From assembly GCA_036568905.1 (NCBI GenBank), contig DATCRQ010000001.1, positions 430,399 through 494,398 on the forward strand: a stretch of 64,000 nucleotides of DNA, read 5' to 3'. The translations under genes and the position numbers were made by a program. The DNA comes from Candidatus Saccharimonadales bacterium. GTDB taxonomy: Bacteria > Patescibacteriota > Saccharimonadia > Saccharimonadales > UBA4665. Under the pieces are notes generated by a model. The model worked only from the letters and a program-made list of their open reading frames with translations, had not been told where the DNA came from and ran no database searches. Of the stretch, positions 26,390 to 48,124 are shown piece by piece (position 1 is the first letter of the stretch; every line of letters begins with the position of its first letter).

Positions 26390-26390
26390 A

Positions 26391-29412: not shown

Positions 29413-29479
29413 TAAGCGCTCGTCAACGCCTTAGACATGAGGATGGGCGCAGCGGATTTTGGCAAGACGCGCCGGAATA

Positions 29480-30826: not shown

Positions 30827-31297
30827 ATGGCAGGGCAACGCAAATCTATTGGGCGACGCTGGCTCACGGCTTATGCACTTTTGGCCGTTCTTCTAATTGC
30901 GTGTGCCTTCGCCCATTCCGCTATTGCCCGGCAACTCAACGATTGGAAAGTCCTGCCTCAACCTGAGCGCCTTACCGAACTCTACTTTACGCATCCTACG
31001 GCGTTGCCCACAACCTACGCCGCCGGCCAAACGCAAACCGTCGCCTTCACGGCGCACAACCTTGAGCATCGCATCACAACCTACACATATAGTATTGCCG
31101 CAAACGACGAAACCGGCAACGCTTCGCAAACGCTCGCCCACGGCACGTTTACCTTGGCCGAAGACCAGACCAAAAACGTCACGGCAAACGTCACGCTGCC
31201 GGCGCTCGGCAATCGTGAGCAAATCACGGTCTCCCTCACCAACGTTTCTACATCCATTGATTATTGGTTAAACGTAGGAACGGAGGCGAAGACATGA
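30827..31297 (+). CDS. Signal-anchored beta-sandwich-like protein heading the glycan operon
   Basis: 156 aa. Anchor WLTAYALLAVLLIACAF, then a T/N-rich beta-type sequence. Its stop overlaps the next start (ATGA). Confidence 0.5.
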   Translation: MAGQRKSIGRRWLTAYALLAVLLIACAFAHSAIARQLNDWKVLPQPERLTELYFTHPTALPTTYAAGQTQTVAFTAHNLEHRITTYTYSIAANDETGNASQTLAHGTFTLAEDQTKNVTANVTLPALGNREQITVSLTNVSTSIDYWLNVGTEAKT

Positions 31298-32454: not shown

Positions 32455-33572
32455 GCAAACTCACGGTATTACAAACACCCGTGCGTTTTTCGCCGGCCAT
32501 TGGCGGTGTGGAGAAATATGTCCTCGAACTTTCAAAGGACCTCGTGGCCGGTGGTGATGAGGTTATCGTCGTAAGTGCCGACGAGCCGCATGCCAACTCA
32601 CCGGCAAAAATCAACGGCATTACAAGCATTCGCCTGCCGTTCAAAACCAAAGTCGCCAACACCAACATTACGCCACACTTGTTCAAAGCATTGAAGGCGC
32701 AAAAGTTCGACGTCCTCCACACGCACATTCCGACGCCATGGAGCGCCGACATTTCAGCACTCGTGTCACTCGTCAAACGCAAGCCGCTCGTCGTAACTTA
32801 CCACAACGATTTGGTTGGCGACGGCATCGGCGGCCTCATCGCAAAGGCTTACAACGCCACACTTTTGCATTTTGTGTTGTGGCGCGCCAAGAAAATCATC
32901 ATCACGCAGGAAAAATACCTTGAGTATTCCGCACACCTTAAGCGGCATCGTCGTAAGGTCGCCGTCGTACCGCTCGGCGTCAATGAGCCTCAGAAGTTCA
33001 GTGTCAAACGCGACCAAAACCAACTTTTCTTCATGAGCGTGCTCGACAAATATCATGAATACAAAGGCCTTGACGTGTTGCTTGAGGCATTGGCGATCGT
33101 GCGCAAAGATTTTCCGAAGCTTCACCTCGTCGTAGGTGGCAAAGGCGAACTTATTGAAAAATACAAAGCGCAGGCGAAGGAACTTGGGATTGCTGACAGC
33201 GTAAAATTCCTTGGGCTTATAAGCGACGAGGAACGCGACAAAGCTTATGCGGCGAGCGGCGCGTTCGTGCTGCCTTCGACGAATTCACTTGAAGGTTTTG
33301 GCATCGTAGCGCTTGAGGCGCTTACGTACGGCACGCCGGTTATTACAACGTCGTTGGCCGGCAGCTCGGCGTACATCAAAGCCCACGATGCCGGCGTTGT
33401 CGTTCCGCCCAAGGATGTCAAAGCGTTGGCAGACGCGCTTCGTACGCTTTGCAAAGATCCGGGCAAGGCAAGGGAAATGGGCGAAAAAGGCCGCGCGTTT
33501 GCCGCAAAGGAATTCAGTTGGAAGGCCATCGCTGCGCAAATGCACCATATATATGAAGAGGCTGGCGCATGA
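32451..33572 (+). CDS. Glycosyltransferase family 4
   Basis: MSKLTVLQTPVRFSPAIGGVEKYV. VLPSTNSLEGFGIVALEALTYGTPVI. ATGA overlap with the previous gene. The track ORF starts at 32370. Confidence 0.85.
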   Translation: MSKLTVLQTPVRFSPAIGGVEKYVLELSKDLVAGGDEVIVVSADEPHANSPAKINGITSIRLPFKTKVANTNITPHLFKALKAQKFDVLHTHIPTPWSADISALVSLVKRKPLVVTYHNDLVGDGIGGLIAKAYNATLLHFVLWRAKKIIITQEKYLEYSAHLKRHRRKVAVVPLGVNEPQKFSVKRDQNQLFFMSVLDKYHEYKGLDVLLEALAIVRKDFPKLHLVVGGKGELIEKYKAQAKELGIADSVKFLGLISDEERDKAYAASGAFVLPSTNSLEGFGIVALEALTYGTPVITTSLAGSSAYIKAHDAGVVVPPKDVKALADALRTLCKDPGKAREMGEKGRAFAAKEFSWKAIAAQMHHIYEEAGA

Positions 33573-34669
33573 GCACGCGGCGCATCATTCAGGTTTCGGC
33601 GTATTATTTGCCGCACGTTGGCGGACAAGAATGGGCCGTGAAGGATCTCGCGACAAATTTGGCCGCGAACGGCAACGACGTTACGGTACTTACTTCAGAC
33701 CAAGGCGGCGAGGCTGGCACGCACGAAGAAAACGGCGTGAAAGTCGTACGTCTCAAGAGCGTTGAGTTCGCCCACACGGCCATCATGGGCGGGTTGTTTT
33801 TCGAGCTTCTCAAGTGCGCGGGCAAGGACGACGTCGTGCACGTGCACATCGGCCAAGCCTTCACGCCGGAAATCGTGTGGCTTGCTTCAAAGTTCAAACG
33901 CTTCAAGTACGTCGCCCAAATGCATATCGAGCCTACGGCGTCCGGGCCGGTCGGCTCGTTGCTTGCCGTGTACAAACGTATTTTCCTGAAGCGTGCGTTG
34001 CGTGCCGCGAGCGCTGTCATTGTCCTCAACAAAGAGCATAAGCAAATCATCGAGAAGAAGTACGGTTATCGCGGCAAAATTTCCGTCATGAACAACGGCA
34101 TGAACGAGGAATATTTCCAGCTCAAGCGCAAGCCGAAGCACGGCAAAGTTATCAACCTCTTCACGGTCGCGCGCTTTAGCCCGCAGAAAAACTTGCCGAT
34201 GCTTGTGGAAGCCTTAAAGTGGACGCGGCACAAAGTGCACCTCGACATTATTGGCGATGGCGAGGAACGGCCGAAGATCGAGGAAGCCATCCGCGAAAAT
34301 CATCTTGAGGAGCAGGTGACGTTGCACGGCCAGCTTGACCGTAGCGAAAACGTCGCGTTCTATGCGTCGTGCGACGCGTTCGTGCTGGCGTCTTTGTACG
34401 AAGCGCAGCCGCTTGTGTTGCTTGAGGCGATGGCTTCGCGTGCGCCGATTATCGGCACGAATGTGCAGGGCATTGGCGAGCACATCAAAGGCGTCGGATA
34501 TCTCGTGGAACCTACGGCGGCGTCGATTGCCGCGGGCATCGACGCATTTGCCGAAGACCCGACGCACGGCGAGCACTTCGCCGAGGCAGCCTTCAAAAAG
34601 GCGCAAGCCTTTCGTTGGAGCACGCTTCTCAAAAAATACGAAGCCATTTATAACGAGGTGAGCAAGTGA
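33569..34669 (+). CDS. Glycosyltransferase family 4
   Basis: 366 aa. IQVSAYYLPHVGGQEWAV. VLASLYEAQPLVLLEAMASRAPII. ATGA overlap upstream and GTGA overlap downstream. Confidence 0.85.
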   Translation: MSTRRIIQVSAYYLPHVGGQEWAVKDLATNLAANGNDVTVLTSDQGGEAGTHEENGVKVVRLKSVEFAHTAIMGGLFFELLKCAGKDDVVHVHIGQAFTPEIVWLASKFKRFKYVAQMHIEPTASGPVGSLLAVYKRIFLKRALRAASAVIVLNKEHKQIIEKKYGYRGKISVMNNGMNEEYFQLKRKPKHGKVINLFTVARFSPQKNLPMLVEALKWTRHKVHLDIIGDGEERPKIEEAIRENHLEEQVTLHGQLDRSENVAFYASCDAFVLASLYEAQPLVLLEAMASRAPIIGTNVQGIGEHIKGVGYLVEPTAASIAAGIDAFAEDPTHGEHFAEAAFKKAQAFRWSTLLKKYEAIYNEVSK

Positions 34670-37032
34670 ACCTGAAGAAAACGTTCGCAGGCTTTGGCCT
34701 CGGTGCGCTCGTTGCCAGTGACGCATTGATTGCCTTGCTGCATGTAGACGCGTTGTGGCCGCTGCGTATTATTTTGTTCCCGGCACTCGTACTGTTGCCG
34801 GGATATTTTGCTTTGCGGGCGTTTGGCATCACGAAGACGAATACCGTTAAGGCATTTTTGTACGCCGTAACTCTCGGCTTGTTTGGCTTGATGATCGCCG
34901 GCCTCGGTGCCAACGAATTCACCGGACTTTTCGTGCACACCTCACGGCCGTTGAGCTTTGCGAGCATCTTCATCTTTTGGAACATATTGTGTTTCACACT
35001 TTGGGGCGTCGCAACTTTGCATCGCAAGCCAGCAGCCCAGCCTTTCCAAGTGAGCGTTCGCGCGCAGAAAGGAATGTCATCCGAGCCTTCTGTACCAGAA
35101 GTCTCGTCCGCCACCTTTCCGGCTCCACTTCGGGAAGGGCAACTCACTTTACTGAGCCATGCGGCCGGCTGGAAACAGCACGACGTCATCGTAAGCTGCC
35201 TCGCACTTCTTCTGCCCGTCGTCATGGCGCTCGGCGCGTTTCGCTTGAACAACGGCGGCTCAAACATCGTCACGCTCTTCGGATTTGTCTGCGCCGCGTT
35301 GCTGCTTTTGTATGTTGTCGTGAGGCACAAAAGGCTGAGTGAGGGAACGCTGCTCGTCGTGCTGTTTGGCGTCGGCCTCAGCGTTTTGCTCGCGACGTCA
35401 TTACGAAGCTGGGCAATCACCGGCCACGACATCAAGCACGAGTACCAAGTCTTCACCCTTACCGACCAAACGGGCAAGTGGAGTATGGGCGGCCTGCGCG
35501 ACGCGTACAACGCGTGTCTCAGCATCACGATTTTGCCCGAAGTACTCAGCAAGCTCCTGCACATGAGCGGCCTCTACGTCTTCAAGTTTTTGTTTGAGGT
35601 CATCTTCGCTTTGTGTCCGCTCATCGTCTTTACAATCTTACGGCGCTTTACGACGACGTTCAACGCGCTCATCGGCGCGATTTTGTTCATCGCGTATCCT
35701 ACGTTCATCACCGACGCCGCAATGCTCACGCGGCAAGAAACGGCTTATATGTTCTTCGGCCTGGCGATGTTGACGTGGTTCGACAACGACGAAACATTTC
35801 ATAAGCATTGGAAGTTGCTCTTCATCGTATTGTCAGGCGGCGTGATCATGTCGCATTACTCGACGTCGTACACGTTTGCGGCGGTTTTGCTGCTTACGTA
35901 TTTCGCCCGCGTGTTGTTCGTGCCGAAGCACGCCTTCAGCGCGGCGCACAAAAAGTTGTCGCCAATTATGTTGGTGCTCATCGTGCTTGGTACGTTCTTT
36001 TGGTACGCGCAGCTTACGGACACCTCGGGCGGATTGTTTGCGACGGTTAAATCTTCCATCGCCAATATCGCGACGACGTTTAGCGCGGATAACAAGTCTT
36101 CGGACACGTCGGCAGCCTTGTTATTCTCGGCCTCGCAATCGCAAACGAGCATTTTTAACTCCTACGTTTCGAGTGTGCAAAGCAACAGCAGCGCGGCCGG
36201 GCAGGCGGCCGCCGGCAACTATCCAATTTCGCTGGCCGGCGACCAATTGCCGTATACGGCGCTTGGCAAAGCAATCAACGCGAGCGGCCTTGACGCCGGA
36301 AGCTTACAAGATTCGCTGCACTCGTTGTACGCCAAGCTGTTGCAGGTACTCGCTCTCGGCGGCGTCATACTCGTGGGCATCGAGGTCTTGAGAAAACGCT
36401 CGTCAAAGTTCAGCCCCGACTTCTTTGCACTCTGCGCCGCGAGCATCGTATTCCTCGGCGCGCTCGTCGTGCTGCCCAGCATTTCGCAGGATTACGGCAT
36501 CCTGCGTGCCTTCCAGCAATGCATGATCTTTTTGCTCGTCCCCATGATTCTCTTTGTAGAATTGCTCCTCAAAAAACTCCGTACGCGGTGGCGTGCAATG
36601 CTCATGGGCGCGCTTGCCCTCGGCGCATTTGTACTCTTCACGCCGGTGTCCTCAAACCTTATCGGCGGAGTCGATCCATCGCTCAACGCCAATAGCTACG
36701 GCTTTTACTACGGTTACTATTACACGACCGGGGGCGAGTTGGACGGCTACGCCTGGCTGTCCGCAAACGTTCCGAAGAGCGCCGACGTCCGCGCCGCCAA
36801 CTATCACACGGCCGATATGCAAAATCCGTTTTTTCCATTCACGCAAACGGGCATCTTGCCCGAACAAACCAAACCGAGCAGCTACGTGTTCCTCGACCAA
36901 ACCCAAACGCAAGGCCAAAAACTGTACCAAGAATTCAACGGCAATGCGTTGGTCACGACGTTCCCGCTCGCTTATTACCAAAACAATAAGGATTTGATTT
37001 ACGCTAACCCGACCGCGGAGATTTACCGCTGA
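34666..37032 (+). CDS. Large polytopic membrane protein (DUF2206-like); candidate glycan polymerase or GT-C transferase
   Basis: 788 aa with a GTG start. At least 13 TM helices, then a soluble tail of about 150 aa ending in NNKDLIYANPTAEIYR. There is no Wzy or other polymerase elsewhere in the locus. Confidence 0.65.
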   Translation: MNLKKTFAGFGLGALVASDALIALLHVDALWPLRIILFPALVLLPGYFALRAFGITKTNTVKAFLYAVTLGLFGLMIAGLGANEFTGLFVHTSRPLSFASIFIFWNILCFTLWGVATLHRKPAAQPFQVSVRAQKGMSSEPSVPEVSSATFPAPLREGQLTLLSHAAGWKQHDVIVSCLALLLPVVMALGAFRLNNGGSNIVTLFGFVCAALLLLYVVVRHKRLSEGTLLVVLFGVGLSVLLATSLRSWAITGHDIKHEYQVFTLTDQTGKWSMGGLRDAYNACLSITILPEVLSKLLHMSGLYVFKFLFEVIFALCPLIVFTILRRFTTTFNALIGAILFIAYPTFITDAAMLTRQETAYMFFGLAMLTWFDNDETFHKHWKLLFIVLSGGVIMSHYSTSYTFAAVLLLTYFARVLFVPKHAFSAAHKKLSPIMLVLIVLGTFFWYAQLTDTSGGLFATVKSSIANIATTFSADNKSSDTSAALLFSASQSQTSIFNSYVSSVQSNSSAAGQAAAGNYPISLAGDQLPYTALGKAINASGLDAGSLQDSLHSLYAKLLQVLALGGVILVGIEVLRKRSSKFSPDFFALCAASIVFLGALVVLPSISQDYGILRAFQQCMIFLLVPMILFVELLLKKLRTRWRAMLMGALALGAFVLFTPVSSNLIGGVDPSLNANSYGFYYGYYYTTGGELDGYAWLSANVPKSADVRAANYHTADMQNPFFPFTQTGILPEQTKPSSYVFLDQTQTQGQKLYQEFNGNALVTTFPLAYYQNNKDLIYANPTAEIYR

Positions 37033-38294
37033 TGATTACAAAACTTAAAGCACGCGTTGGCAACGACAAACTGCTCAGCAACTCGCTGTATTTGATGTTG
37101 GCGACAGGTGCGATGGCGCTGTTTGGTTTTGTGTTTTGGATTGTTGTAGCACATATGTTCAAGTCTACGACAGTTGGTTTGGCTACGACGCTGCTTTCGA
37201 TGTCCGGCCTCATCGCATCGCTCAGCCTCGTAGGTTTCGACACCGTTTTCATCCGTTTTTTGCCTAAGGCCGAGAACCGGAACGCGCATATCGACAGCGG
37301 CTTGATGATGGTCGGCATTGCCTCGGCCATTTTGTCCGCGGGCTTTTGCGCACTCGTGCCGCACCTTGCGCCAAAGCTCACGTTCGTTGACCACAACCTT
37401 TGGTATATTTTGAGTTTCGTCATCTTCACGATCTTCACGGCGTGGAACACGCTCACCAACGCAGTCTTCGTAGCGTACCGCGAAACGCGTTACGTGCTCG
37501 TCATCAATATTATCTTCAGCGCCATCAAGATGGTGTTGCCGTTTGCCGTCATGCATGGCGGTCCGATGGCGATTTTTGCCGTGGCCGGCATCGCGCAAGT
37601 CATCAACGTGTTGCTCAGCCTTGCGGCGATGATGAAGTACTTTGGCTACCGGCCGGCACCGATTATCCATCGCGATGTCGTGCGCGAAGTACGCAAATAT
37701 TCGTCGGGCTCGTACGTTGCGAGTTTCCTTAACCTTATGCCGATCACGGTTCTGCCGCTGGTCGTTACCAACCAACTTGGGCCGTCGCAGGCCGCGTTCT
37801 TTTACATCGCCTTCACGATTGCCAACCTGATATTTACCATTGGTTACTCCACGACGCAATCGTTGTTTGCGGAAAGCTCGCACAACGAAGAGAAATTGGA
37901 CGCCAACTTGCGGCGCGGCTTCAAGATTGCCGTCATCATTGGCGCGCCGGCGATTGTCGTACTGCTTTTGGCGGGGCAACTCATCCTCAAACCGTTCGGC
38001 CACGATTACGCTGACGGTGCCACAACGATCTTGCGCGTCCTCGGCGCCAGCAGCATTTTCGTGTACATGTACAGCGCGCTCAACGCGCTCTTCAAGGTCA
38101 CGAAGGATATTCGCGCCATGATCGTCGTCAACATTTTCTACGCCGGCATTATCATCGGCCTCGGCTGGGCGCTGGCCAAGCCGTTGCACCTTTTGGGCGT
38201 GGGCATTGCGTGGGCGAGCGGCAACTTCGCGGCGACAATCGTGGGGCTTTACTTCAGAAGAAGAGCCGCTCAACGCGAAGCAGCGTCGGCGTAA
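37032..38294 (+). CDS. Wzx-like oligosaccharide flippase (MOP superfamily)
   Basis: 420 aa. N-terminus LKARVGNDKLLSNSLYLMLATGAMALFGFVFWIVVAHMF and 12 to 14 TM helices. TGATG overlap with the upstream gene. Confidence 0.8.
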   Translation: MITKLKARVGNDKLLSNSLYLMLATGAMALFGFVFWIVVAHMFKSTTVGLATTLLSMSGLIASLSLVGFDTVFIRFLPKAENRNAHIDSGLMMVGIASAILSAGFCALVPHLAPKLTFVDHNLWYILSFVIFTIFTAWNTLTNAVFVAYRETRYVLVINIIFSAIKMVLPFAVMHGGPMAIFAVAGIAQVINVLLSLAAMMKYFGYRPAPIIHRDVVREVRKYSSGSYVASFLNLMPITVLPLVVTNQLGPSQAAFFYIAFTIANLIFTIGYSTTQSLFAESSHNEEKLDANLRRGFKIAVIIGAPAIVVLLLAGQLILKPFGHDYADGATTILRVLGASSIFVYMYSALNALFKVTKDIRAMIVVNIFYAGIIIGLGWALAKPLHLLGVGIAWASGNFAATIVGLYFRRRAAQREAASA

Positions 38295-39553
38295 GTCTCG
38301 GCTACGATGTCAATCGAGTCCGACGCTTGCTTGATGTAGCCCGGCAAAACCTTACGAAGCTTTTTGCGGTAATCTTCGCCGTGCACAATAAGTTCGTCGG
38401 CTTTTTGGATGAGCAATTCGGCGCTGACGTCTTCGATTTTTACCCACCAATCGTCGAGGCCGAGGTCCTTCATAATGCCGCTGGTTTTGTGCTCATACTC
38501 GATGGCCAGCGCCGGCACAAACGCCGTCAAAGAAAAAATGATCGAGTGAAACCGCGTGCCAACAATAAAGTCGAGGTCGCTGTACAGCGCCTTAATTTGG
38601 TGATGGTCGTAGTTTTCCATCAGCACTTCAACGTCCTTTTTGTGCTTGATGAGTTTACGCACGCGCTGGCCGACTTCGCGGTCGTCGTCGTGATGAAACT
38701 TGGCCGTGACTTGCGGGATAAACACAACCTTCGCGCCATATTTTTTCACGAGATGATCGGCGAGGGAAGCGATGGCTTGCTCATACTTCGCTTGCTTCTC
38801 AGGCTGCATCCACGCCCGCACCGTGATGCCAACGATGAGTTGCTTAGGCTTTGCCTTGAGCATCTTCCTGAGGTCAGCCGACTTGGGCGCAGTAAAGAGA
38901 AAGCCGGCGTCCACGGATTTTACGATCGGCTTCGTGACGCCAATCTTCTCCAGCAAATCCTTGCTGATTTGCTCGCGCGTGATAATCGCGCTCACTTTAC
39001 GGTTGAACGTATAACGAATCAAACGCTCCTCAAACGTATGATAAAACGGCCCGAACGATTGCGCATACAACGCCGTTGGCGTGCCCAAAGCGCTCGCCAC
39101 GAACAGCGGATGCGTGAGCAGCATGAGGTTGTAGATGCTCGTAAGGTCGCGCTGGCCGCGAAGATAGCCGCCGCCGACGGCGATCACCAAATCAGCCTCG
39201 GCGTACAGCTTCGCGATTTTGCGCAGGCTCTTTGGCAACGGCAAACTGATATGCAAATAGCGCCGCGCGTACGCCCAAACGGTCGTCGCACTCATAATAT
39301 ATATGCCGTAGGCAAGTTTGGCCGGCTTGCTGGCTGCGCCGAAGTTGGCAAAGTACATAAACGCGTGCTCAACCGGCACCCCCTCGAACGTTTCGCCGGG
39401 CTTCGTCGTGTCGAGGCTGAGCACCGTGAGTTTGGCCGGCTTAAACTTGCGCTGCGTCTCACGTATGAGCACACTCAGCAGCGCGGCGTCGCCCTTATTA
39501 TCCTTTGAATAGGCGTGCGAAATAATAATGTTGCGTGGTTGACCCTGGTCCAT
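38270..39553 (-). CDS. Polysaccharide pyruvyl transferase family protein
   Basis: 427 aa. NIIISHAYSKDNKGDAALLSVLI (G-x-x-N-x-GD motif), VIAVGGGYLRG, FIVGTRFHSIIFSL. It overlaps the flippase gene end convergently by 25 bp. Confidence 0.8.
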   Translation of the reverse strand: MDQGQPRNIIISHAYSKDNKGDAALLSVLIRETQRKFKPAKLTVLSLDTTKPGETFEGVPVEHAFMYFANFGAASKPAKLAYGIYIMSATTVWAYARRYLHISLPLPKSLRKIAKLYAEADLVIAVGGGYLRGQRDLTSIYNLMLLTHPLFVASALGTPTALYAQSFGPFYHTFEERLIRYTFNRKVSAIITREQISKDLLEKIGVTKPIVKSVDAGFLFTAPKSADLRKMLKAKPKQLIVGITVRAWMQPEKQAKYEQAIASLADHLVKKYGAKVVFIPQVTAKFHHDDDREVGQRVRKLIKHKKDVEVLMENYDHHQIKALYSDLDFIVGTRFHSIIFSLTAFVPALAIEYEHKTSGIMKDLGLDDWWVKIEDVSAELLIQKADELIVHGEDYRKKLRKVLPGYIKQASDSIDIVAETYADAASR

Positions 39554-39793
39554 GCAAAAATAAAATAGCCGCTTTCGCGGACTAAGTCCCTGGAAGATAA
39601 CCCTGGTTATCCTTTGTAGTATAGCATGCGCGTTTGAGTGGTTTTACACGGCATCATAAAAAATTACAACGACCTTTAGAGGTCAGTCTGGCTTGCAAGC
39701 CGAGGCAACTCACGATACTGTAAGCGCGTTGAAGTTGTAATGCTTTTAGGCAACAGAGTTCAGGGGCTGACTGTGTTTGCTATTGCCAAAATT

Positions 39794-42700
39794 ATGCCTC
39801 GATTACCACTGCCCGGTTCAGACGCAAATCATTGGGGAACAATCCTCAACGATTTCTTGTCGGTCGAACATTCGGCCGATGGCTCACTCAAACTCCGCAC
39901 CGACGGAACGTTGAATGGTTTTTATTCCAAGCCCAGCGGCGGTATTCCGGCTGGCGATCTGAGCGCAAGCGTCCAAGCTTCTTTGACGTCGCCTCAGAAC
40001 TTTGTTGACCTTTCAAGTTTGCAGACGATTAATGGCGCTAAGACGTTCTCGCAAAATATTTCCGTGCCCGGCGGCACGGTCACGCCGCTCGATTGGCACA
40101 ACGTAAAAACCTACGGCGCCGTCGGCGACGGCATCACCGATGATCTTGCTGCCGTACAGTCTGCCGTCAACGCCGCATCGTCCGCAGGCGGCGGCGTGGT
40201 GTTCTTTCCAAAGGCAACATATTTGTTAAGCGCGGCACTCGCACCGAAGTCTAGCGTTACATTGCTCGGCGTAGGCAGTGGCAGCGTGCTTAAAACCAGC
40301 GCAAACAGCTACATCGTCGGCACAACAACAGCTTCCTTCAGCGACTTCACCATAGACAGCATTACGTTTGTCGGGCCGGTCAACAATAGCGTTTCCGTCC
40401 CGACGCGCGCCCGTACCACGTCGGGCAACGGCGCGCAAAATGCCGTGTACCTCGACACAAATCAAGATCCGTACAACCCGGGCGGTGGTGCAATCACCAA
40501 TTTCACGATGCGCAATTGCACGGTCAAAGACTGTACGGCGCTGCCAATCAACATTCGCGGCGTGGGCGGCGTCGTGCGCGTAGTAAATAATAATTTCTAT
40601 AATAACCAGGACGTCGGCTTCATTTATTGCAGCGAGGTTATCTTTGCCAACAACCACGTGCAAATGTCCGCCGACAACGGTGTGTCCATCTCGCGAGGCA
40701 ACCAAAAGGTAAGTTGCACCGGCAATACATTCGATAACTGTTGCTACAACGGCATTTGGCTGTCCGGCTTTGATGTCCAAGGTAACGGTGCCCTCAACGA
40801 AACCGGCCCGACGTTTTTCTCGTGCACTGGCAACACGATTACCAACGTTGGCTTCAATGGCATTATCGCCGACGGCGCTCCGGCGCACGGCGTCATCTCC
40901 GGCAACTTCATTAACCAAGGATACTTCCGTGGCCCAAGCGACCAGCCGAGTGACGTCAATGGCGCCGGCATTTACATCGGCGGCTATCCAATCAGCGCGC
41001 GCACGTCGCCAACGGCATACGCCACTAATATCAACGTCGTTGGTAACACGTTATATCAATGCGCACGCGCCGGCGTATACGTCACGGGCGCGAAAGCGAT
41101 TAACATTGACGCCAACCTCATTCTCAACTGCGGCACGCAGTTCAAGGCCGACGGCGCGACGGCCATCGCCAGCAGCGACAGTTCGCAGAACGTCGGCGTC
41201 CTCATCGACAATGTCAGCACCAATACCGACATATGCGTTCGCATGAACACCGTCCTCGATGAACGTAGCACGCCTTACTGCAATCAGGCACTTGCGCCGC
41301 AATCGCCACCAAGCTCGTTTATGTATTACTACAACCAGATGACCGGCTGTCGCAACGCGTATAATTTGCTTGATTACACATCAAATACGCGCGAAATTTC
41401 CGGGACCTATCGCTTTGACAGCCCGCTCAAAGCTGTCGGCGGCGCGACGGCCGGCAGCAATGCCGGCACCGGCACGGTCGCCGGCTTTGACATCAACGGC
41501 GCGTCAGGCTCTACCCGGCCGTTCCGCTTGCTCACGGCGGGCAATGCACGCTGGCTCATGCGTGCGAGTTCTACGGCAGAGAGCGGTTCCAACGTTGGCT
41601 CAGATTTTGCTATCGACGCCTACGACGACACCGGCACGTACCTCAGCAGTCCGCTCACCATCACGCGCGCAACGCAGGCAACAACGATCGCCAGACTCAT
41701 CGCCAATTCGCTGAGCCTGACAGGAGGCATGAGTTCGTCGCTGAGCATGAACGGCAACGATATTCTAAACGCCCACAACATTACCGACACCAACAACAGC
41801 ATCGTATTAGCGTTTGTACCGACGGCCAACGCGGTGAATTATATTGCCGTCCAAAACAACACGACGACCAACAATCCGGCATTCTACACCGAAGGTGCCG
41901 ATGCGGACATCGGCATGACCTTCAAAACGCAAGGCAAGGGGACGACCGTCTTCCATCCCGGCACCGATACGGCCGGAGCTGTACAATTCCGTGCCGCGGC
42001 AAACACTGCAGCCGCAACAGTGCTCGGCATCGATACCGCCAACGGCAGAGTCGGAATCAACACTGCGGCGCCCGCCAATGCACTCGACGTCAACGGCACG
42101 CTCTCGGCGACGTCCTTAAAGATAACTACCTCGCCGGCAGCCGGCTACGTATTGACCTCGGATGCCTCGGGAAATGCAACGTGGCAGGCGACGGCTGTCT
42201 CGGGCACTGCCGGTGGTGATCTCGCCGGCACATATCCCAACCCAACGCTCACGGGCAGCGCGAATGTCGAGAGCATCATCCGCGCCAATCGCCTCGATCA
42301 ATTCGCCGCACCGACATCAAGTGTCTCGCTCAGTTCACAAAAGATCACCAACCTTGCAAATGGTAGTGCAACAACTGACGCCGCAACCTTTGGCCAAATC
42401 CCCGCGGCTACAACGACAGTTCCGTCGCTTGCAACCAGCACGGCTGCAGCAGCCGGCACGGCCATAACATTTGCCCGTGCCGACCATGTCCATCCGGCTA
42501 CGTACGCATGGACAACCGCCGATTACGGATTGCTGTCGCAAAACATGGATATTGCCATGCTTAGTGGCAATAGTGTTGTGCCCACAGCCGGCACCATATT
42601 TCTGGCAAAGATGAACATTCCCGTAGCTATAACGGCGACTAACGTGCTGCTGTGGGTGGCCGTTGCGGGCAGCGGGCTTACCAGCGGGCAAAACTTTGCA

Positions 42701-43018
42701 GCGTTGTATTCCGGCAGCGGCACGCTGCTCGCCAAAACAAGCGATCAATCTGCTAACTGGCAAAACACCGGTTTGCAAACCATGCCGCTCACGGCCGCAC
42801 AGGCATTGAACCCCGGATCGTACTACGTTGCCTTTTGGGTAAACGGCACGACGCTGCCGGCGTTCCGAGCCGGCATTGGCTCGGCGTCGGTGAACGCAGG
42901 CCTCACAGGCAACGCCGCCCGTTTTGCCAGCGCCAACACAGGCGTCACCACAACGGCGCCAGCAACTCTGGGCACGGTCAGCGCCGATGGGCACTCATGG
43001 TGGGCTGCCTTCAGCTAA
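39794..43018 (+). CDS. Mosaic tail-fibre/tailspike-like surface protein: shared N-terminal adaptor + right-handed beta-helix (pectate-lyase-3-like) + fibre repeats + C-terminal beta-sandwich
   Basis: MPRLPLPGSDANHWGTILNDFLSVEHSADGSL. QTINGAKTF. WHNVKTYGAVGDGITDDLAAVQSAVNAASSAGGGVVFFPKATYLL, followed by repeated NN/GN beta-helix rungs. GRVGINTAAPANALDVNG...GYVLTSDASGNATWQ. DAATFGQ. ITFARADHVHP. The track ORF starts at 39740; ATG 39794 matches the paralogous N-terminus. Confidence 0.8.
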   Translation: MPRLPLPGSDANHWGTILNDFLSVEHSADGSLKLRTDGTLNGFYSKPSGGIPAGDLSASVQASLTSPQNFVDLSSLQTINGAKTFSQNISVPGGTVTPLDWHNVKTYGAVGDGITDDLAAVQSAVNAASSAGGGVVFFPKATYLLSAALAPKSSVTLLGVGSGSVLKTSANSYIVGTTTASFSDFTIDSITFVGPVNNSVSVPTRARTTSGNGAQNAVYLDTNQDPYNPGGGAITNFTMRNCTVKDCTALPINIRGVGGVVRVVNNNFYNNQDVGFIYCSEVIFANNHVQMSADNGVSISRGNQKVSCTGNTFDNCCYNGIWLSGFDVQGNGALNETGPTFFSCTGNTITNVGFNGIIADGAPAHGVISGNFINQGYFRGPSDQPSDVNGAGIYIGGYPISARTSPTAYATNINVVGNTLYQCARAGVYVTGAKAINIDANLILNCGTQFKADGATAIASSDSSQNVGVLIDNVSTNTDICVRMNTVLDERSTPYCNQALAPQSPPSSFMYYYNQMTGCRNAYNLLDYTSNTREISGTYRFDSPLKAVGGATAGSNAGTGTVAGFDINGASGSTRPFRLLTAGNARWLMRASSTAESGSNVGSDFAIDAYDDTGTYLSSPLTITRATQATTIARLIANSLSLTGGMSSSLSMNGNDILNAHNITDTNNSIVLAFVPTANAVNYIAVQNNTTTNNPAFYTEGADADIGMTFKTQGKGTTVFHPGTDTAGAVQFRAAANTAAATVLGIDTANGRVGINTAAPANALDVNGTLSATSLKITTSPAAGYVLTSDASGNATWQATAVSGTAGGDLAGTYPNPTLTGSANVESIIRANRLDQFAAPTSSVSLSSQKITNLANGSATTDAATFGQIPAATTTVPSLATSTAAAAGTAITFARADHVHPATYAWTTADYGLLSQNMDIAMLSGNSVVPTAGTIFLAKMNIPVAITATNVLLWVAVAGSGLTSGQNFAALYSGSGTLLAKTSDQSANWQNTGLQTMPLTAAQALNPGSYYVAFWVNGTTLPAFRAGIGSASVNAGLTGNAARFASANTGVTTTAPATLGTVSADGHSWWAAFS

Positions 43019-43947
43019 TTAGCCGCCGGCCGCCCCAACAGCCATCGGTAGCTTACAGCCCAAAACGCAATTGAATATAAAGCGAAGAAAATCATCCCGG
43101 CATACGTATGAAAAAGGCTGAACGCCAGATGCGGGTTGATATAGTAGCCAGCCAGGACGAGTACGTACACGCGCAAAATATTGCAGCCAAACAGGAGAAG
43201 CATCGCGGCGGGAAACACGAGAATGAACCGGCGCTTGTTAAAACGTTTCCAGTCCAAAAATCCAACGATCGCATAGAAGCCGCTAAACAATGCCAGGGAT
43301 TCGATCCCCGAACAATATTGCGCCACGGTTATGCCGAACTTCGTAAGCAGCAAAGTGCGCGGCGGGATAATCGCTACCGTCAGGCCGCTCGTGCGTAACA
43401 ACCACGCCGCAGCGTGGAGCACGACGCCGGCGAGCACTGGCCAAAGCGCATAGATACCAGCGAGCAGGAAGTAAAAACAAACGCCTGAGATAACGGCGAG
43501 GCCCAACTCCCGTCGATATGCTCGGACAACCAACCGCAATGCCGCCGGCCCAAAACAGCCGCCCAAAGCAAACACAACGCTCGCAAGCAAAAAGCCATGC
43601 GCGCCAACCAGCCAAAGTTCGGTACGTTGTCCGACGAGCAGATGCCCGACGCACCACCACGAGGCAGCGAAGCTTGCCGTCGCTGTGGCCAGCCAGCCAA
43701 AGTTCCCTTGACGCCACGCAGGCAATTGTACTGACCATTGCGTGCGATAGGCAAGCAGGGCGAACGCAATAAGCGCAAACAGCAACGCCTTACCAAAGCC
43801 TCCATACCAGCCAAAGCCGTCGCGGTTTAGGATGGAGCTGCCTACAATCCTCGGACCAATCAAACCCGAAAACACGACAAAGACCGTCAAAAAAGCAATC
43901 AGCCGCTCAATGAGCGGCGTGATTGCTTTTGGAAGCTTCAACTTCAT
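43015..43947 (-). CDS. Exosortase/archaeosortase-family transpeptidase homologue
   Basis: Polytopic protein with about 8 TM helices. Family motifs occur in the expected order: VAQYCSGIESLALFSG (Cys), FGCNILRVYVLV (Arg), SLFHTYAGMIFF (His). ATG 43947 is preferred; a TTG alternative lies at 43989. Confidence 0.7.
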   Translation of the reverse strand: MKLKLPKAITPLIERLIAFLTVFVVFSGLIGPRIVGSSILNRDGFGWYGGFGKALLFALIAFALLAYRTQWSVQLPAWRQGNFGWLATATASFAASWWCVGHLLVGQRTELWLVGAHGFLLASVVFALGGCFGPAALRLVVRAYRRELGLAVISGVCFYFLLAGIYALWPVLAGVVLHAAAWLLRTSGLTVAIIPPRTLLLTKFGITVAQYCSGIESLALFSGFYAIVGFLDWKRFNKRRFILVFPAAMLLLFGCNILRVYVLVLAGYYINPHLAFSLFHTYAGMIFFALYSIAFWAVSYRWLLGRPAAN

Positions 43948-43954
43948 GAAACGT

Positions 43955-44407
43955 TTAGACGTTTTCGGTTGCGAACTTGCGTCGTACAACCAAGAAACCT
44001 GCGCCAGCAGTAAGTACTGCGCCAGCGCCCGTCACAAGGCCGAGTTCAGGAAGCGCAACATTGACGATAACAACGTTCAACTTCATAGTGTCAGCCGTAA
44101 CTTTGCCGCTGCTCACGCCGCCTTTGCCGCCCTTTGAAGCAACAACGGTAACTGTATCACCGACTGCGCATTGCCCTTTCGCAAAGGTAACGCTGTATTG
44201 GCCGGCGTTGTTCGTCTTGGTGCTGCGCGAATAGTTGTTACATACAACGGTTACGTGCGCACCTTTTACCGGTTTGCCATTGTTATCAATAACGCCGCTT
44301 ACGCTTGTTTTGGCGCCTGTCGTCGGTGCCGCTGAAGCAATCGACGGTACAGCAAACGCTGCTAATAAGCTGAGTGCCGCTACAATCGCTGTGATCTTCT
44401 TTCTCAT
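43955..44407 (-). CDS. Secreted CarboxypepD_reg-like beta-sandwich protein with a C-terminal PEP-CTERM-like sorting signal
   Basis: GGAG RBS. Signal peptide MRKKITAIVAALSLLAAFAVPSIASA. GVIDNNGKPVKGAHVTVVCNN...NNAGQYSV. C-terminus ALPELG-LVTGAGAVLTAGAGFLVV-RRKFATENV. The track ORF starts at 44422. Confidence 0.7.
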   Translation of the reverse strand: MRKKITAIVAALSLLAAFAVPSIASAAPTTGAKTSVSGVIDNNGKPVKGAHVTVVCNNYSRSTKTNNAGQYSVTFAKGQCAVGDTVTVVASKGGKGGVSSGKVTADTMKLNVVIVNVALPELGLVTGAGAVLTAGAGFLVVRRKFATENV

Positions 44408-44486
44408 GGTCCCTGACTCCATTTACGTTGTCAACCTTACCATAATGAACCCGGCTTCCAAGGATTGCAAGGCTTTCGTTGTAATT

Positions 44487-45407
44487 TTAACGCAGCGTAA
44501 ACGTAGCGAGCAGGCCGATGTACGCCAGTTTGCTCATCGCGTTGATCGTTATCGTAAGCAAGAGATTTTGTTTCTTGTAATACGTGAAGCTTAGTACGAT
44601 TCCTGAAAGCAAAGCGAAGAGCGGAACGAGCAGCGTGCTATGGCCGACGCTTGCGAACGTATAAAGCGCGGCCGAGAGTGCAGCGGCTACGACGGGGTGC
44701 ATAATTTTGGCAGCGCGTTGTTGGATTAGGCCCCGGAACAACATCTCTTCGGCAATCGCAAACACGACACTTGAGGCAGCAACGAGAGGCAACGAAGTCG
44801 GCTCGTACGGATAATAATTGCGTAGCATAAAGTAGCCGGCCGTGCCGAGCACTTGGCCGACGATCAGCATGAGCGGGAGCGTCAACGCATAGCCACGGCC
44901 CGTAAGTGCAGTGTTGGGCAGCGGTTCGTCCAGCGTAAACCAAAAACGGTAGACGAGCGTGAGCAAGAGTAGGGCGTCATAGAAAACGACAGCTTCGGCA
45001 AAATTGGAAGATTGCGGCAGGCTGAGCGTGATCATCGTTGCTACGGGCAGGATGGCGAGGGAAATAGCAAACTTACGGTACGACTCACGCCAAAGCGCAA
45101 GGCCGCAGAGCGCAGCAAACGCACCGGCATTAACATAGACGCCGAGCGCCGGCTTCCACCACAGACTCAGCTGCGAAGCCCCAAGCATGACGGCTGAGCC
45201 AAGGGCAAGACCCCAGTTTTGGCGCAACACAGTAAGCGCCCTGACGGGACGTACGGCTGCATATATTTTGCTTAATGTCTGTCCGCGGTTTTTAGCTACC
45301 TTAGGCTGGGCAACTATTTTCTTGGCCGCAGCCTTGGCTGTCATAGATTGTCGTGAAGCCGCAGCCTGTGCGGACGTTTTACGGGCAGTCGTCTTCGTCG
45401 TAGCCAT
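44487..45407 (-). CDS. CPBP (CAAX/Abi) family intramembrane protease homologue
   Basis: 306 aa. A/K-rich basic N-terminal tail, at least 6 TM helices, and motif 1 FAIAEEMLFRGLI (EExxxR). FASVGH is a possible motif 2. I could not see a clean HxxxN motif 3. Confidence 0.7.
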   Translation of the reverse strand: MATTKTTARKTSAQAAASRQSMTAKAAAKKIVAQPKVAKNRGQTLSKIYAAVRPVRALTVLRQNWGLALGSAVMLGASQLSLWWKPALGVYVNAGAFAALCGLALWRESYRKFAISLAILPVATMITLSLPQSSNFAEAVVFYDALLLLTLVYRFWFTLDEPLPNTALTGRGYALTLPLMLIVGQVLGTAGYFMLRNYYPYEPTSLPLVAASSVVFAIAEEMLFRGLIQQRAAKIMHPVVAAALSAALYTFASVGHSTLLVPLFALLSGIVLSFTYYKKQNLLLTITINAMSKLAYIGLLATFTLR

Positions 45408-45625
45408 TATGCTTTCCCCGTTTGCTTGTACGCAGCGTAAATCAAAAGTCCAGCGAGAACCAGAAATAACGGATAGAAATAGCGCAGGTGCTGACGTTGC
45501 TCACGCGGGCGCTCCGAGTAAACGAGCTCAACAACGATGAGCGCGCCAACAAGCAACACTGTATTGAGAACCAACGTTGTTTGTTGCAAATTCGTGCTCA
45601 ACTGAAACGGAAGACGCAGGAACAT
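45407..45625 (-). CDS. Small two-TM membrane protein, first gene of the cassette
   Basis: 72 aa with an AAAGGTG/GGAG RBS. Its stop overlaps the CPBP start (TAATG). Confidence 0.5.
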   Translation of the reverse strand: MFLRLPFQLSTNLQQTTLVLNTVLLVGALIVVELVYSERPREQRQHLRYFYPLFLVLAGLLIYAAYKQTGKA

Positions 45626-45702
45626 ATGCTCACACCTTTAACTCCGGCCAATTGTACTACAAAGTAGCGCATACGTCAAAATACCGTCACTATCAATGAG
45701 CG

Positions 45703-46188
45703 CTAGGCAGCGTAGACAACTACCAACGTATGCGGCGACATACGGCTCGTAAGCGTAGCAAGTTGCTCATCGGAAGCTCCTTGCGTCACGTACATCGTGC
45801 CGCATTCGGGCGGATTAAGTATCACTTGGCCACGCGTCGCAAAAAGCACGTCGGCGGCAGGCTCATCGTCACCATTCTGCACCGCGAAATGCGCCCGCTC
45901 CATTTGGGCAATTTCTTCCGAAAGTTCCAAAATGCGCGCAGATTTCAGCGTACTCGAACGCTCGCGTAGCGCTTGTCTCATCACCACACGCCATTGTTTG
46001 CTAACGGCAGCCAGCATACCTGGCGGACTTTCCGTCACGACAACGATCTTGCCGGAAAGCTGGCGCGTATACATATGATGTGCCAAGTCCCATGCCAAAC
46101 TTACGTTCGCCCGTAGCTCACGCGCTTCAATATATAGAGAACTCATTGCCGCCCCCCACGCCGATTTTCGGCGCTTTGTCCCTGGCAA
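45703..46188 (-). CDS. Hypothetical cytoplasmic protein
   Basis: 161 aa (147 aa if ATG 46146, MSSLYIEAREL, is used). No motif recognised. Confidence 0.5.
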   Translation of the reverse strand: MPGTKRRKSAWGAAMSSLYIEARELRANVSLAWDLAHHMYTRQLSGKIVVVTESPPGMLAAVSKQWRVVMRQALRERSSTLKSARILELSEEIAQMERAHFAVQNGDDEPAADVLFATRGQVILNPPECGTMYVTQGASDEQLATLTSRMSPHTLVVVYAA

Positions 46189-46399
46189 TACTTCTACGCT
46201 CCCGCACTATGAAGTCAGCCCACCCGACAATAAACTCGCCCCGATTCCAAAAATGCTCATTACAAGCAAACCACTGACGGTCATCACGATCGCAAAAGCC
46301 AACGCTTAGTTCGTCCGCGGGCCGCTCTTTGCAGCAAATGACACACTGTAAAACAACAATATCGGCCACATCCTCAGGCCAAGCAATCACTCCCATCAC
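46127..46399 (-). CDS. Small Cys/His-containing hypothetical protein
   Basis: 90 aa. LQCVICCKERP ... FACNEHFW suggests a CxxC...CxxH metal site. It overlaps the downstream ORF by 20 to 62 nt. Confidence 0.4.
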   Translation of the reverse strand: MMGVIAWPEDVADIVVLQCVICCKERPADELSVGFCDRDDRQWFACNEHFWNRGEFIVGWADFIVRERRSIARDKAPKIGVGGGNEFSIY

Positions 46400-46622
46400 C
46401 CTACAAGCCTTTCTATCTAGCCAGCCGCTGCGTCCCTGAAGGCAACAGCAAACTAGACCTCCAAGAAGTCTTATATTTTTACCAAACAGCTACAAATGAG
46501 ATATTAAGCGCATCGCGTTATTCACCAAATACAATATAAGTCGTATAATGGTGCTTGAAATAAAAACAAGCTTGAATAACGACTATATAAATGATACGTT
46601 TAATACTCGGAACATTTGTATG

Positions 46623-46646
46623 AGCACCGAGCGATCGCTCAGTGCT
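46623..46646. promoter_or_regulatory. 24-nt near-perfect palindrome upstream of the HTH-methyltransferase gene
   Basis: AGCACCGAGCGA|TCGCTCAGTGCT, with 11 of 12 positions pairing, centred on GATC, 60 nt before ATG 46706. Confidence 0.3.
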
Positions 46647-46705
46647 ATGTTATCTTTAAATGCGGAAACATGTCAACACTTTTAACGAGATAAAGTTGCT
46701 CGCTT

Positions 46706-47929
46706 ATGCTGTACTTCAAAAATCGCGAACTAGCCGAAACCTACCACGTATCCGACCGCACCATCCGCAACTGGATCGAAGAGACTAAGCAGGGCAAGCT
46801 GCAGCTATCGCTGCACGAGCAAGGCGGCCGGTCTTTTGTCGCCAACACCACGAAAAACTTGAGCATTATCGAGGAACTCGTGTCTGCCCGCAAGAAATTT
46901 CGCCCGCACCACACTTTTAAGGTGATTACGCCGAAGCCGGAGTTTTATAAGTTCTACAACCCGGCACAGATCTACGATATATTGACGAACATCGAGATCC
47001 ATCACGAGATTCCAAGACAATATAACTATTTTGATGGCGGCGCGCATGCTTGGGATGCATATGTTAAGCGCCTAGCTTCTGAAGAAACATCTAACATATT
47101 TAATAGGGGCGTCGAGCTACTTAATGATAGTTATTACTATATAGATAACGCCATAGGGGAAAGGAAACGCGTAAACATTATCGATCTAGGCGGAGGTAAC
47201 GCTATGCCTGCGCGCTCTTTGATCGCCCACCTAATTAAACAGGGTGTCATGGGCCGTTATGTCGATCTGGATATAAGTAAAGAGATGCTTGCTATAGCGA
47301 GAAAGAATATAGACAAGTGGTTCGGCGATACTGTTGCCTTTGAAGGATACGAAACAGATATCAACTACGATCGTTTTGCGAATATCTTAGCCGAAGAATA
47401 CCTAGGACCAAACTCCGAAGACACAATTAACATAGTTCTATTTCTCGGCATGATGCTGGCGAATCTACGAACACCCGATGGGGCTCTAAGGGTCATACAT
47501 GATAGCCTGGGGCTGAACGACCTACTTGTATACACTAACAAGCTCGATACACCCACCACTCGTAGATTCTTTGACTTTAATGTTCGTGAAGATGAGCCGG
47601 TATTACCGCCCATCCATAGGCTTGTTATCGACTTACTAAATATAGATAAATCAATGTACGATCTAGATCTGGGCTACGATTCGGCACGTAAGGAGCGCTA
47701 CGAGCGTATTCGCTTCAATACCGCCGTAACAATCCAGTTTGACTTTGCCGAAGGCTCCAGGTCGTTGGATTTGAATAAGGGAGATTCCATCCTCGTATGG
47801 CGAGCACGGCAGCAAGGCGCGCTCGATGTCATCCACCAATTCGATCGGAACGATTTTTACATGCTGCACTCGAGCCAGACGGACGATCAAGAATACATTT
47901 TGACAGTTTCGCGCGTTAAATCTGAGTAG
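46706..47929 (+). CDS. HTH domain fused to an EgtD-like (Methyltransf_33-type) SAM-dependent methyltransferase
   Basis: 407 aa, AT-rich gene. N-terminal ELAETYHVSDRTIRNWIEE (helix-turn-helix). NIIDLGGGNAMPARSLIAHL (SAM motif I), YVDLDISKEMLAIARKNI, VLFLGMMLANL, and a C-terminal substrate-domain layout like EgtD (from memory). Confidence 0.6.
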   Translation: MLYFKNRELAETYHVSDRTIRNWIEETKQGKLQLSLHEQGGRSFVANTTKNLSIIEELVSARKKFRPHHTFKVITPKPEFYKFYNPAQIYDILTNIEIHHEIPRQYNYFDGGAHAWDAYVKRLASEETSNIFNRGVELLNDSYYYIDNAIGERKRVNIIDLGGGNAMPARSLIAHLIKQGVMGRYVDLDISKEMLAIARKNIDKWFGDTVAFEGYETDINYDRFANILAEEYLGPNSEDTINIVLFLGMMLANLRTPDGALRVIHDSLGLNDLLVYTNKLDTPTTRRFFDFNVREDEPVLPPIHRLVIDLLNIDKSMYDLDLGYDSARKERYERIRFNTAVTIQFDFAEGSRSLDLNKGDSILVWRARQQGALDVIHQFDRNDFYMLHSSQTDDQEYILTVSRVKSE

Positions 47930-48124
47930 TAATCGTAAAAACTACAACGAATCGGACGCGCACATTTTCGCTTCTTCTGCAGTCTTCATATAATATACTT
48001 GTACAAAATGCTTAAAGATTTTACAAATGTTACGAATTAGCTAGGGAACATATTTTTACAACACTACCTTTTGTGACATATTAATGCTGTTAGAACGTCG
48101 CTATGCAGCAGGCTAGCGCCATGC

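Follow-up and report, generated by a model that had tools for sequence, protein, structure and literature searches.

A candidate dedicated exosortase-type protein-sorting system in a Candidatus Saccharimonadales bacterium

Described sorting systems and the Saccharimonadales enzyme

XrtA/PEP-CTERM systems occur in Gram-negative bacteria, where each enzyme serves many cargos. XrtG (TIGR03110, exosort_Gpos), which according to its model name is an exosortase-family protein of Gram-positive bacteria, is not known to have a cargo signal. In the XrtE/VPEID-CTERM system (TIGR04162), the exosortase is fused to a CPBP domain, and ArtC pairs with the archaeal PEF-CTERM signal (PMC5244752); the descriptions given here of XrtE, ArtC, and XrtG draw on the NCBIfam names of these classes, on this paper, and on common background. 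The best-studied family member is ArtA of Haloferax volcanii, an archaeal enzyme with a PGF-CTERM signal and many cargos, including the S-layer glycoprotein. In its mechanistic model, the active-site Cys forms a thioester, which a lipid amine then resolves (PMC7157517). Here we compare with these systems a four-gene cassette from a Candidatus Saccharimonadales bacterium, a member of the candidate phyla radiation (CPR), found in a stretch of 64,000 nucleotides of contig DATCRQ010000001.1 (hereafter, the window). We give a probability of roughly 0.8 to the reading that the cassette is a dedicated exosortase-type protein-sorting system of this bacterium.

An open reading frame (ORF) check of the window placed the four genes co-oriented on the minus strand, spanning 43015..45625:

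45407..45625, minus strand: small transmembrane (TM) protein of 72 residues with two helices, its gene translationally coupled to that of the CPBP homolog
44487..45407, minus strand: CPBP/Rce1-like intramembrane protein of 306 residues, its start overlapping the stop of the small TM gene by 1 nt (TAATG)
43955..44422 as an ORF, 43955..44407 as the likely gene, minus strand: secreted cargo of 150 residues
44330..44407, minus strand: signal peptide of the cargo
44066..44308, minus strand: transthyretin-like beta-sandwich of the cargo, from AlphaFold2 and Foldseek
43955..44062, minus strand: C-terminal sorting tail of the cargo, with motif, TM helix, and basic cluster
44039..44050, minus strand: P-E-L-G signature of the tail; a TM helix rich in Gly and Ala and then RRK come after it
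43015..43947, minus strand: polytopic enzyme of the exosortase/archaeosortase family, 310 residues, beginning 7 nt past the cargo stop
43312..43314, minus strand: Cys212, catalytic-type residue of the enzyme
43171..43173, minus strand: Arg259, catalytic-type residue of the enzyme
43108..43110, minus strand: His280, catalytic-type residue of the enzyme

The gap between the CPBP and cargo genes is 64 nt if measured to the first ATG of the cargo ORF and 79 nt if measured to the second. The sequence-only reading, made without database searches, had proposed this co-oriented arrangement with its junctions and had named the motifs YCSGIES, NILRV, and FHTYAG in the enzyme, EEMLFRG in the CPBP homolog, and ALPELG / LVTGAGAVLTAGAGFLVV / RRK in the cargo; the layout and all of the motifs were found again.

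The assignment of the last gene to the exosortase family was borne out by Pfam and NCBIfam profile searches, in which PF09721 scored 59.5 bits (cut-off 25.7, E = 4e-16) and TIGR04178 scored 54.8 bits (cut-off 23, E = 9e-15), both above the curated cut-offs. The residues of the proposed Cys, Arg, and His motifs, C212, R259, and H280, stand in the canonical order and are invariant across 120 homologs, and each is conserved to at least 90% among 148 distant cluster representatives, some of which are fragments. The AlphaFold2 model (predicted local distance difference test score (pLDDT) 88.1, predicted template modeling score (pTM) 0.83) is an all-helical membrane bundle of about nine long helices, with one small beta-hairpin just before the helix that bears the Cys, and from it we confidently predict a polytopic integral membrane protein. 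Among solved structures, the PDB gave no sequence match for the exosortase and no fold match for its model. The enzyme is 100% identical to an 'archaeosortase/exosortase family protein' (P0001) encoded on a 979,712-bp contig of a metagenome-assembled Candidatus Saccharimonadales genome at NCBI and has more than 320 public homologs with 48-76% identity, of which the few with organism names are mostly Saccharimonadales.

No named Xrt or Art subclass model in NCBIfam accepts the enzyme. Its best named subclass is XrtE (66.8 bits), followed by XrtX (37.5 bits), ArtC (34.5 bits), XrtA (30.4 bits), and XrtG (15.1 bits), and each match reported for XrtA, C, D, G, H, J, N, O, R, V, W, and X, for ArtA and ArtE, and for CrtA and CrtC was far below the cut-off. 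A HMMER scan of 1.84 billion cluster representatives retrieved 53 relatives at E <= 1e-30; the number rises to 568 with a limit of E <= 1e-10 and to 1,848 with E <= 0.001. Among the 148 nearest representatives, 94 match XrtE at E <= 1e-10 and 32 match ArtC, all sub-threshold apart from one true XrtE, and this single member is the only case in which any subclass model reaches E <= 1e-30. Because the subclass models remain sub-threshold among these nearest relatives, the enzyme belongs to a sizeable unclassified branch that, in sequence space, is nearest to XrtE and ArtC. Longer forms of the enzyme also exist. In the relative's locus L013 (7986-10196) and in P0214 (743 residues), the exosortase is fused at the C-terminus to a polysaccharide pyruvyl transferase (PF04230, 114 bits; CsaB/WcaK-like), and other cluster representatives have 733-802 residues or ~450-515 residues with a C-terminal exosortase domain.

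The likeness to XrtE goes beyond the score, as in both systems an exosortase is associated with a CPBP domain and the signal has a P-E core. However, the window enzyme is far under the XrtE cut-off of 150 bits, as are its relatives from L013 (80.8 bits) and L069 (53.9 bits), whereas a true XrtE from Rhodovulum (L024) scores 351 bits. The exosortase and CPBP domains that are fused in XrtE are encoded here by separate ORFs, as was evident from the sequence at the outset. The CPBP homolog is moreover paired with the 72-residue protein and has lost the canonical histidines, the signal is [I/V/L]-P-E-[Y/F/L]-G and not VPEID, and the host has no outer membrane. With ArtC/PEF-CTERM, the cassette shares a recurrent sub-threshold match of the enzyme and a tail that by eye is nearly the same ([I/V]-P-E-F-G, TM helix, R/K-R-K), and archaeal loci (L072, with L067 and L070 by similarity) carry the same cargo fold with this tail. 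The ArtC cut-off of 100 bits is not reached, however, the present host is bacterial, and it has one or a few adjacent cargos of a single family, whereas in the archaeal loci the tail occurs on several unrelated architectures.

The more distant classes differ further. XrtA/PEP-CTERM, together with the CPBP family TIGR03008 (pepcterm_CAAX), has in common with the cassette the superfamily, a tripartite P-E signal, and a link to polysaccharide loci, and TIGR03008 is a precedent for exosortase and CPBP as separate genes, but the XrtA cut-off lies at 208 bits. For XrtG, the cut-off is 102.75 bits, and the present system differs by its obvious adjacent cargo. ArtA, whose mechanistic model is used below, gave no match to the window enzyme at E <= 1 and only ~28 bits on the L013 and L069 enzymes against a cut-off of 75 bits; its PGF signal, its archaeal host, and its many cargos also set it apart.

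The cargo, its tail, and the linkage to the enzyme

Cargo and enzyme were found to be linked in both directions. Two sets of relatives' loci were compared: 23 enzyme-seeded loci from a scan of GTDB species genomes and two contig look-ups, and 50 confirmed tail-seeded loci from a metagenome scan for [V/I]NVS[I/V/L]PE[Y/F]G. The records of the enzyme-seeded set are mostly Saccharibacteria metagenome-assembled genomes (MAGs), and the labels of several loci derive from MAG bins, of which some are clearly mis-binned. The tail search used an alignment of eight sequences, which biases this sample towards the NVS[I/V/L]PE[Y/F]G form. A cargo homolog is immediately upstream of the enzyme, often overlapping it, in 23/23 enzyme-seeded loci. 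In the tail-seeded set, the enzyme is directly downstream in 43/50 loci; four of the others are ended by a contig edge and three are archaeal-looking. Tail and exosortase gene occur together in every assessable Saccharibacterial locus. A tail hidden Markov model (HMM), a check that had been suggested from the sequence, was run over the 4,283 ORFs of all loci and gave 111 hits, 103 of them to the cargo family, the only other credible matches being in archaeal-looking loci. This adjacency upholds the dedicated enzyme/cargo pair that had been put forward, and it agrees with the criterion stated by Haft for a dedicated system. In the loci and the 64 kb covered, none of the three outcomes that the sequence-only reading had named as refuting it came up.

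That the cargo is single is true of the window, which has one copy, but not of the relatives, which carry one to about seven adjacent paralogs. The highest number is in L035 (5683-10021), where about seven cargo paralogs flank the exosortase and one copy appears disrupted. In L004 (3323-3742) and L008 (7523-7960), the cargo paralogs nearest to the enzyme carry VPRAS and VPVFG where PExG is expected, and intact copies are found further upstream of these degenerate ones. L004, L010, and L021 are Saccharibacteria-type loci in MAGs labeled Verrucomicrobiia, Candidatus Sulfotelmatobacter, and Candidatus Acidoferrum, labels that are probably binning errors in soil MAG sets.

The linkage extends to distant relatives. 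Marker genes served to place two of the distant loci, an archaeal-type FtsZ for L072 and a bacterial-type TrpRS for L076. L075, L076, and L077 (GC content 32% in the first two and 42% in the third) keep the cargo tail in the form PEFG or PELG, the exosortase, Wzx, a glycosyltransferase (GT), and DUF2206, and L075 additionally has a small TM protein and a CPBP. L067, L070, and L072 (GC content 36-38%) have arrays in which three to five different proteins end in (I/V/T)PEFG, a TM helix, and R/K-R-K, and these arrays (for example L072:5650-8683) include homologs of the same beta-sandwich cargo; the flanks retrieved for these loci contain no exosortase. The FtsZ of L072 is archaeal-type, with 438 bits to the M. 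jannaschii protein vs ~305 bits to bacterial ones, and L067 and L070 are taken as archaeal by similarity to L072. These arrays look like a classical one-to-many PEF-CTERM-type system.

The likely true start of the cargo is the second ATG, at 44407 (MRKKITAIV), which has a GGAG ~10 nt upstream. The resulting 150-residue protein is identical to the NCBI entry 'hypothetical protein VIM53_02525 [Candidatus Saccharimonadales bacterium]' (P0189). CarboxypepD_reg scored 29.3 bits on it, slightly below the cut-off of 32.3. In the AlphaFold2 model, residues 34-114 form a beta-sandwich whose block-mean pLDDT is mostly 83-94 and drops to ~72 towards the C-terminal end, and Foldseek matched this sandwich to transthyretin-like / carboxypeptidase D regulatory domains. 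The PE of the motif is at the start of the C-terminal helix (122-148). Sequence, model, and Foldseek matches thus agree with the cargo as it was first described, with a signal peptide, one beta-sandwich, and a tripartite C-terminus. The family is uniform, its members having ~144-170 residues, a signal peptide ending AxA, one beta-sandwich, and the tail, and C56 and C80 are invariant across it.

In the tail, all 81 cargo homologs keep the P, E, and G of the motif, and at the variable position 51 have Y, 18 have F, and 12 have L; a few locus-derived tails have M or V there. In the alignment of these 81 homologs, (L)N(V/I)A(I/V)(V/I)NV(S/A)(I/V/L) stands before the motif; a Gly/Ala-rich helix of ~20 residues comes after it, and then RRR in the family and RRK in the window. 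The tripartite architecture of the proposed PEL-CTERM signal therefore stands, but the name is too narrow, since PEL is the form of only 12 of the 81 tails and the signal is P-E-[Y/F/L]-G, most commonly with Tyr. The sequence-only reading had matched PELG to no described CTERM class, and no NCBIfam sorting-domain model matches it; the tail closely resembles the archaeal PEF-CTERM type. The PEF-CTERM models hit neither archaeal nor window-type tails, so the model library is uninformative on membership in that class. PEP_CTERM scored 9.6 bits on a relative's tail vs a cut-off of 16. A database search with a 43-residue tail alignment returned only four fragments and is uninformative on other architectures with the tail.

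The general layout of the tail also brings sortases into consideration. LPELG could be a degenerate LPXTG motif, recognized by a class A/E-type sortase that links the cargo to peptidoglycan, while the exosortase acts on something else. At 55090..56568, the window encodes a 492-residue protein with a weak PKD-domain match that ends ...TALVNTG-PGSTVAMFLGVTFIATAAHHFFV-KRR-IASQLQ, a sortase-type signal unlike the PExG tail. As had been pointed out from the sequence, its layout of motif, TM helix, KRR, and six residues (...ALVNTG-TM-KRR-IASQLQ) is shared with the cargo. CPR bacteria are reported to have no outer membrane and often to carry sortases (PMC6744442). The CPR host, an LCP ligase (28195..29412), and the LVNTG-type protein also fit the monoderm-looking context that had been described. 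TIGR01167 LPXTG_anchor gave 15.7 bits on the window tail (cut-off 15.9) and 16.3 bits on a relative's tail, but its match is confined to profile positions 13-32, namely, the TM helix and basic part, outside the LPXTG motif. A sortase substrate is unlikely above all because Thr never occurs at motif position 4, which is Y, F, or L in the 81 homologs and M or V in a few other tails. In addition, the residue before Pro is not a conserved Leu but I, V, or L, the tail occurs with an exosortase, an enzyme of unrelated fold, in all assessable Saccharibacterial loci, and the same genome has its separate LVNTG-type signal. No sortase-like gene was seen in the 64-kb window, where a scan for the TLxTC motif matched only ORFs overlapping other reading frames. 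The sortase alternative raised by the likeness of LPELG to LPXTG was thus set aside on the missing Thr and the exosortase linkage, and we regard it as extremely unlikely.

The CPBP homolog and its 72-residue partner

The CPBP homolog matches PF02517 with 48.3 bits (cut-off 22.4, E = 1e-12). Its motif 1 (EExxxR) is kept as AEEMLFRG, with E220 (44750..44748) invariant in 19 homologs, a few of which do not have the second Glu and the Arg. Only about half of these 19 homologs carry the motif-2 His, and motif 3 (HxxxN) is replaced by an invariant N289...K293 (low-confidence hhalign alignment to the H...N of the XrtE CPBP domain, probability 15%). No NCBIfam CPBP subfamily model passes its cut-off, the scores being 25.5 bits vs 130 for MrtS and 20 bits vs 75 for MrtJ. 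The protein matches neither TIGR03008 nor the C-terminal half of XrtE, and its profile has no sequence match in the PDB. The CPBP protease announced for the cassette is therefore present as a family member, with PF02517, EEMLFRG, and co-conservation in the window's clade, but its canonical histidines are lost and the name protease is not secure. Judging from these residues, the family may be non-proteolytic or mechanistically divergent.

A homolog of the 72-residue protein lies immediately 5' of the CPBP gene in 19/19 loci, with gaps of -4 to +11 nt. This small family is strongly conserved (NT, E..(Y/F)(S/A)E, and R..L.YF.PL) and matches no Pfam or NCBIfam family. We defined clades on a neighbor-joining tree of the enzymes and counted only loci with a determinable neighborhood. 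The CPBP/72-residue pair adjoins the cargo and enzyme genes in 16/17 loci of the window's clade and in 2/20 loci of the sister clade, where the tails are mostly PEYG. Of the cassette as originally drawn, the cargo-enzyme pair is thus conserved in relatives in general, and the small TM protein and CPBP homolog are parts of it in the window's clade but are absent from beside it in 18/20 sister-clade loci. On this distribution, we treat the pair as a putative clade-specific accessory module of uncertain activity. Its part in a sorting mechanism is tentative because the histidines are lost and the pair is missing from most sister-clade neighborhoods.

Other CPBP proteins, the myxosortases and MrtJ/MrtS, cut the CTERM signals assigned to them, and one could imagine that the CPBP homolog, not the exosortase, cuts the present tail. 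Its gene belongs to the same cassette, the MrtS and MrtJ models give weak sub-threshold matches, and exosortase and CPBP domains are fused in XrtE. However, the MYXO-, JDVT-, and Synerg-CTERM signals, which are known to be processed by myxosortase-type CPBP proteins, carry an invariant Cys (bioRxiv 10.1101/2023.06.07.544157), and the present tails have none. Both canonical His positions are lost or variable, and the tails are still conserved in the sister clade, mostly without an adjacent CPBP gene. Cutting by the CPBP homolog is in our judgment very unlikely, and the exosortase is the preferred candidate for the processing enzyme.

The glycan locus and the proposed sorting reaction

The cassette abuts a Wzx-type glycan locus, as the sequence-only reading had stated and as Pfam matches, including that of the flippase, confirmed. 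The surface-glycan locus (28195..39508) and the gene between it and the cassette comprise the following:

28195..29412, plus strand: LCP ligase (Pfam)
31264..34669, plus strand: three GT4 glycosyltransferases (Pfam)
34666..37032, plus strand: DUF2206 membrane protein (Pfam)
37032..38294, plus strand: Wzx-type flippase (Pfam)
38210..39508, plus strand: ORF of 432 residues, part of the surface-glycan locus
39740..43018, plus strand: pectate-lyase-like beta-helix protein of 1092 residues (PF12708 70.5 bits; Beta_helix also matches)

The order beta-helix / ORF 38210 / Wzx / DUF2206 / GT4 recurs downstream of the exosortase in relatives. Downstream sequence reaches 4 kb or more in 37 loci; one or more of these genes are shared by 35 of them, and Wzx, DUF2206, or GT4 by 24. 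The DUF2206 protein (~750-790 residues) is almost always in the glycan locus beside the exosortase (L003-L077, the low-GC relatives included), and this recurrent tie suggests a role for it in surface glycan assembly. The beta-helix gene is convergent with the exosortase gene, their stops overlapping by 4 nt, and its homologs are found just downstream of the exosortase in 19 loci, with one to three in tandem in many relatives. The window protein has no obvious signal peptide, its N-terminus reading ...LPLPGSDANHWGTILNDFL, and gives a weak YadA-stalk match. On the side of the cassette opposite the glycan locus, the genes are not conserved among relatives.

Family membership of the enzyme, conservation of its residues, the tail architecture, the two-way linkage, and the synteny with the glycan locus are direct observations, and a sorting reaction can be proposed on them. 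The 150-residue cargo would be exported by Sec and fold into a small, probably disulfide-bonded, transthyretin-like beta-sandwich, while its C-terminal helix would hold it transiently in the membrane with the RRK cluster in the cytoplasm. The exosortase homolog would recognize P-E-[Y/F/L]-G at the outer end of this helix and, by analogy with archaeosortase A, cleave at the motif through a Cys212 thioester with the help of Arg259 and His280. The new C-terminus of the cargo could then be passed to a membrane lipid amine or to the glycan product of Wzx, DUF2206, and GT4. The 72-residue protein and the His-less CPBP homolog would be an accessory pair that may handle the released tail peptide or aid substrate delivery. 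That the acceptor is related to the glycan is a speculation, leaning on the synteny and on the fusion to a pyruvyl transferase.

The constant presence of the enzyme in a glycan locus and its fusion, in one form, to a pyruvyl transferase could also mean that, like XrtG, it acts on the glycan pathway or on another substrate, with the cargo tail as a permanent anchor that is never processed; cleavage is only a proposed step, which would fit this view. Nevertheless, a simple anchor is not expected to keep P, E, and G invariant exactly at the membrane boundary in more than 80 sequences. The strict adjacency of the two genes, which often overlap, also argues against it, and the PE core common to the PEP-, PEF-, and VPEID-CTERM signals favors recognition by the enzyme. 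We consider an unprocessed anchor quite unlikely.

Some points do weigh against a dedicated exosortase system. That the tail is cleaved, what the cargo is passed to, and how the CPBP pair takes part are all inferred. No NCBIfam sorting-domain model recognizes the tail, and the same is true of the archaeal PEFG tails. The CPBP homolog, without its canonical histidines, is not adjacent in those 18/20 sister-clade loci. Finally, the survey for sortases and tails covers 64 kb, or 6.5% of a genome of ~0.98 Mb, and others could be elsewhere.

Public annotation already gives the enzyme a generic name and lists the cargo only as a hypothetical protein; it is the system, not the family assignment, that is new. 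In the literature library that was searched, no paper joins either exosortase or archaeosortase to Saccharibacteria, Patescibacteria, TM7, or the candidate phyla radiation. What distinguishes the system is its host, a CPR bacterium that has no outer membrane, together with the small cargo dedicated to the enzyme and an archaeal-PEF-like signal; further marks are a split, His-less CPBP homolog with a 72-residue subunit and a fixed synteny with the DUF2206 glycan locus. Because this kind of system is well known and many Xrt and Art classes exist, we count it as a variant and not as a new category. A bolder version would make it a distinct CPR exosortase class that shares signal and cargo fold with archaea, ligates its cargo to the glycan of the adjacent pathway rather than to a lipid, and has the CPBP/72-residue pair as a non-proteolytic partner. 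This version is, to our mind, rather unlikely. If true, it would be the first recognized example of such a class and would build a protein-glycan surface layer, perhaps a docking base for the neighboring beta-helix proteins in an epibiotic lifestyle.

From a biological perspective, the cassette adds a conserved and previously unremarked candidate route of surface-protein anchoring to Saccharibacteria and other members of the CPR, bacteria whose epibiotic life rests on the biology of their surface. The resemblance to the PEF-CTERM signal may point to an evolutionary link between the envelope systems of archaea and those of CPR bacteria. With one enzyme, one or a few tiny cargos, a minimal genome, and no outer membrane, these bacteria offer about the simplest setting in which the acceptor of an exosortase could be found by mass spectrometry.

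There is no convincing terminator between the four cassette genes, and from the sequence, a single operon for all of them is plausible. The candidate for its promoter is the following:

45651..45679, minus strand: sigma-70-like promoter candidate TTGACG-17-TACAAT, ~25 nt upstream of the small TM gene

It matches 10/12 hexamer positions, is a consensus match only, and is one of four such sites in the region vs 1.6 expected by shuffling. Upstream of the cassette, the region 45703..48000 has a GC content of 0.46 vs ~0.54 and may have been inserted recently. This low-GC stretch contains a Methyltransf_33 (EgtD-like) gene at 46706..47929 and small ORFs without counterpart in any related locus. On the far side of the glycan locus, just upstream of the LCP ligase gene, an ATP-grasp enzyme and an MFS transporter are encoded next to each other at 25157..27593.

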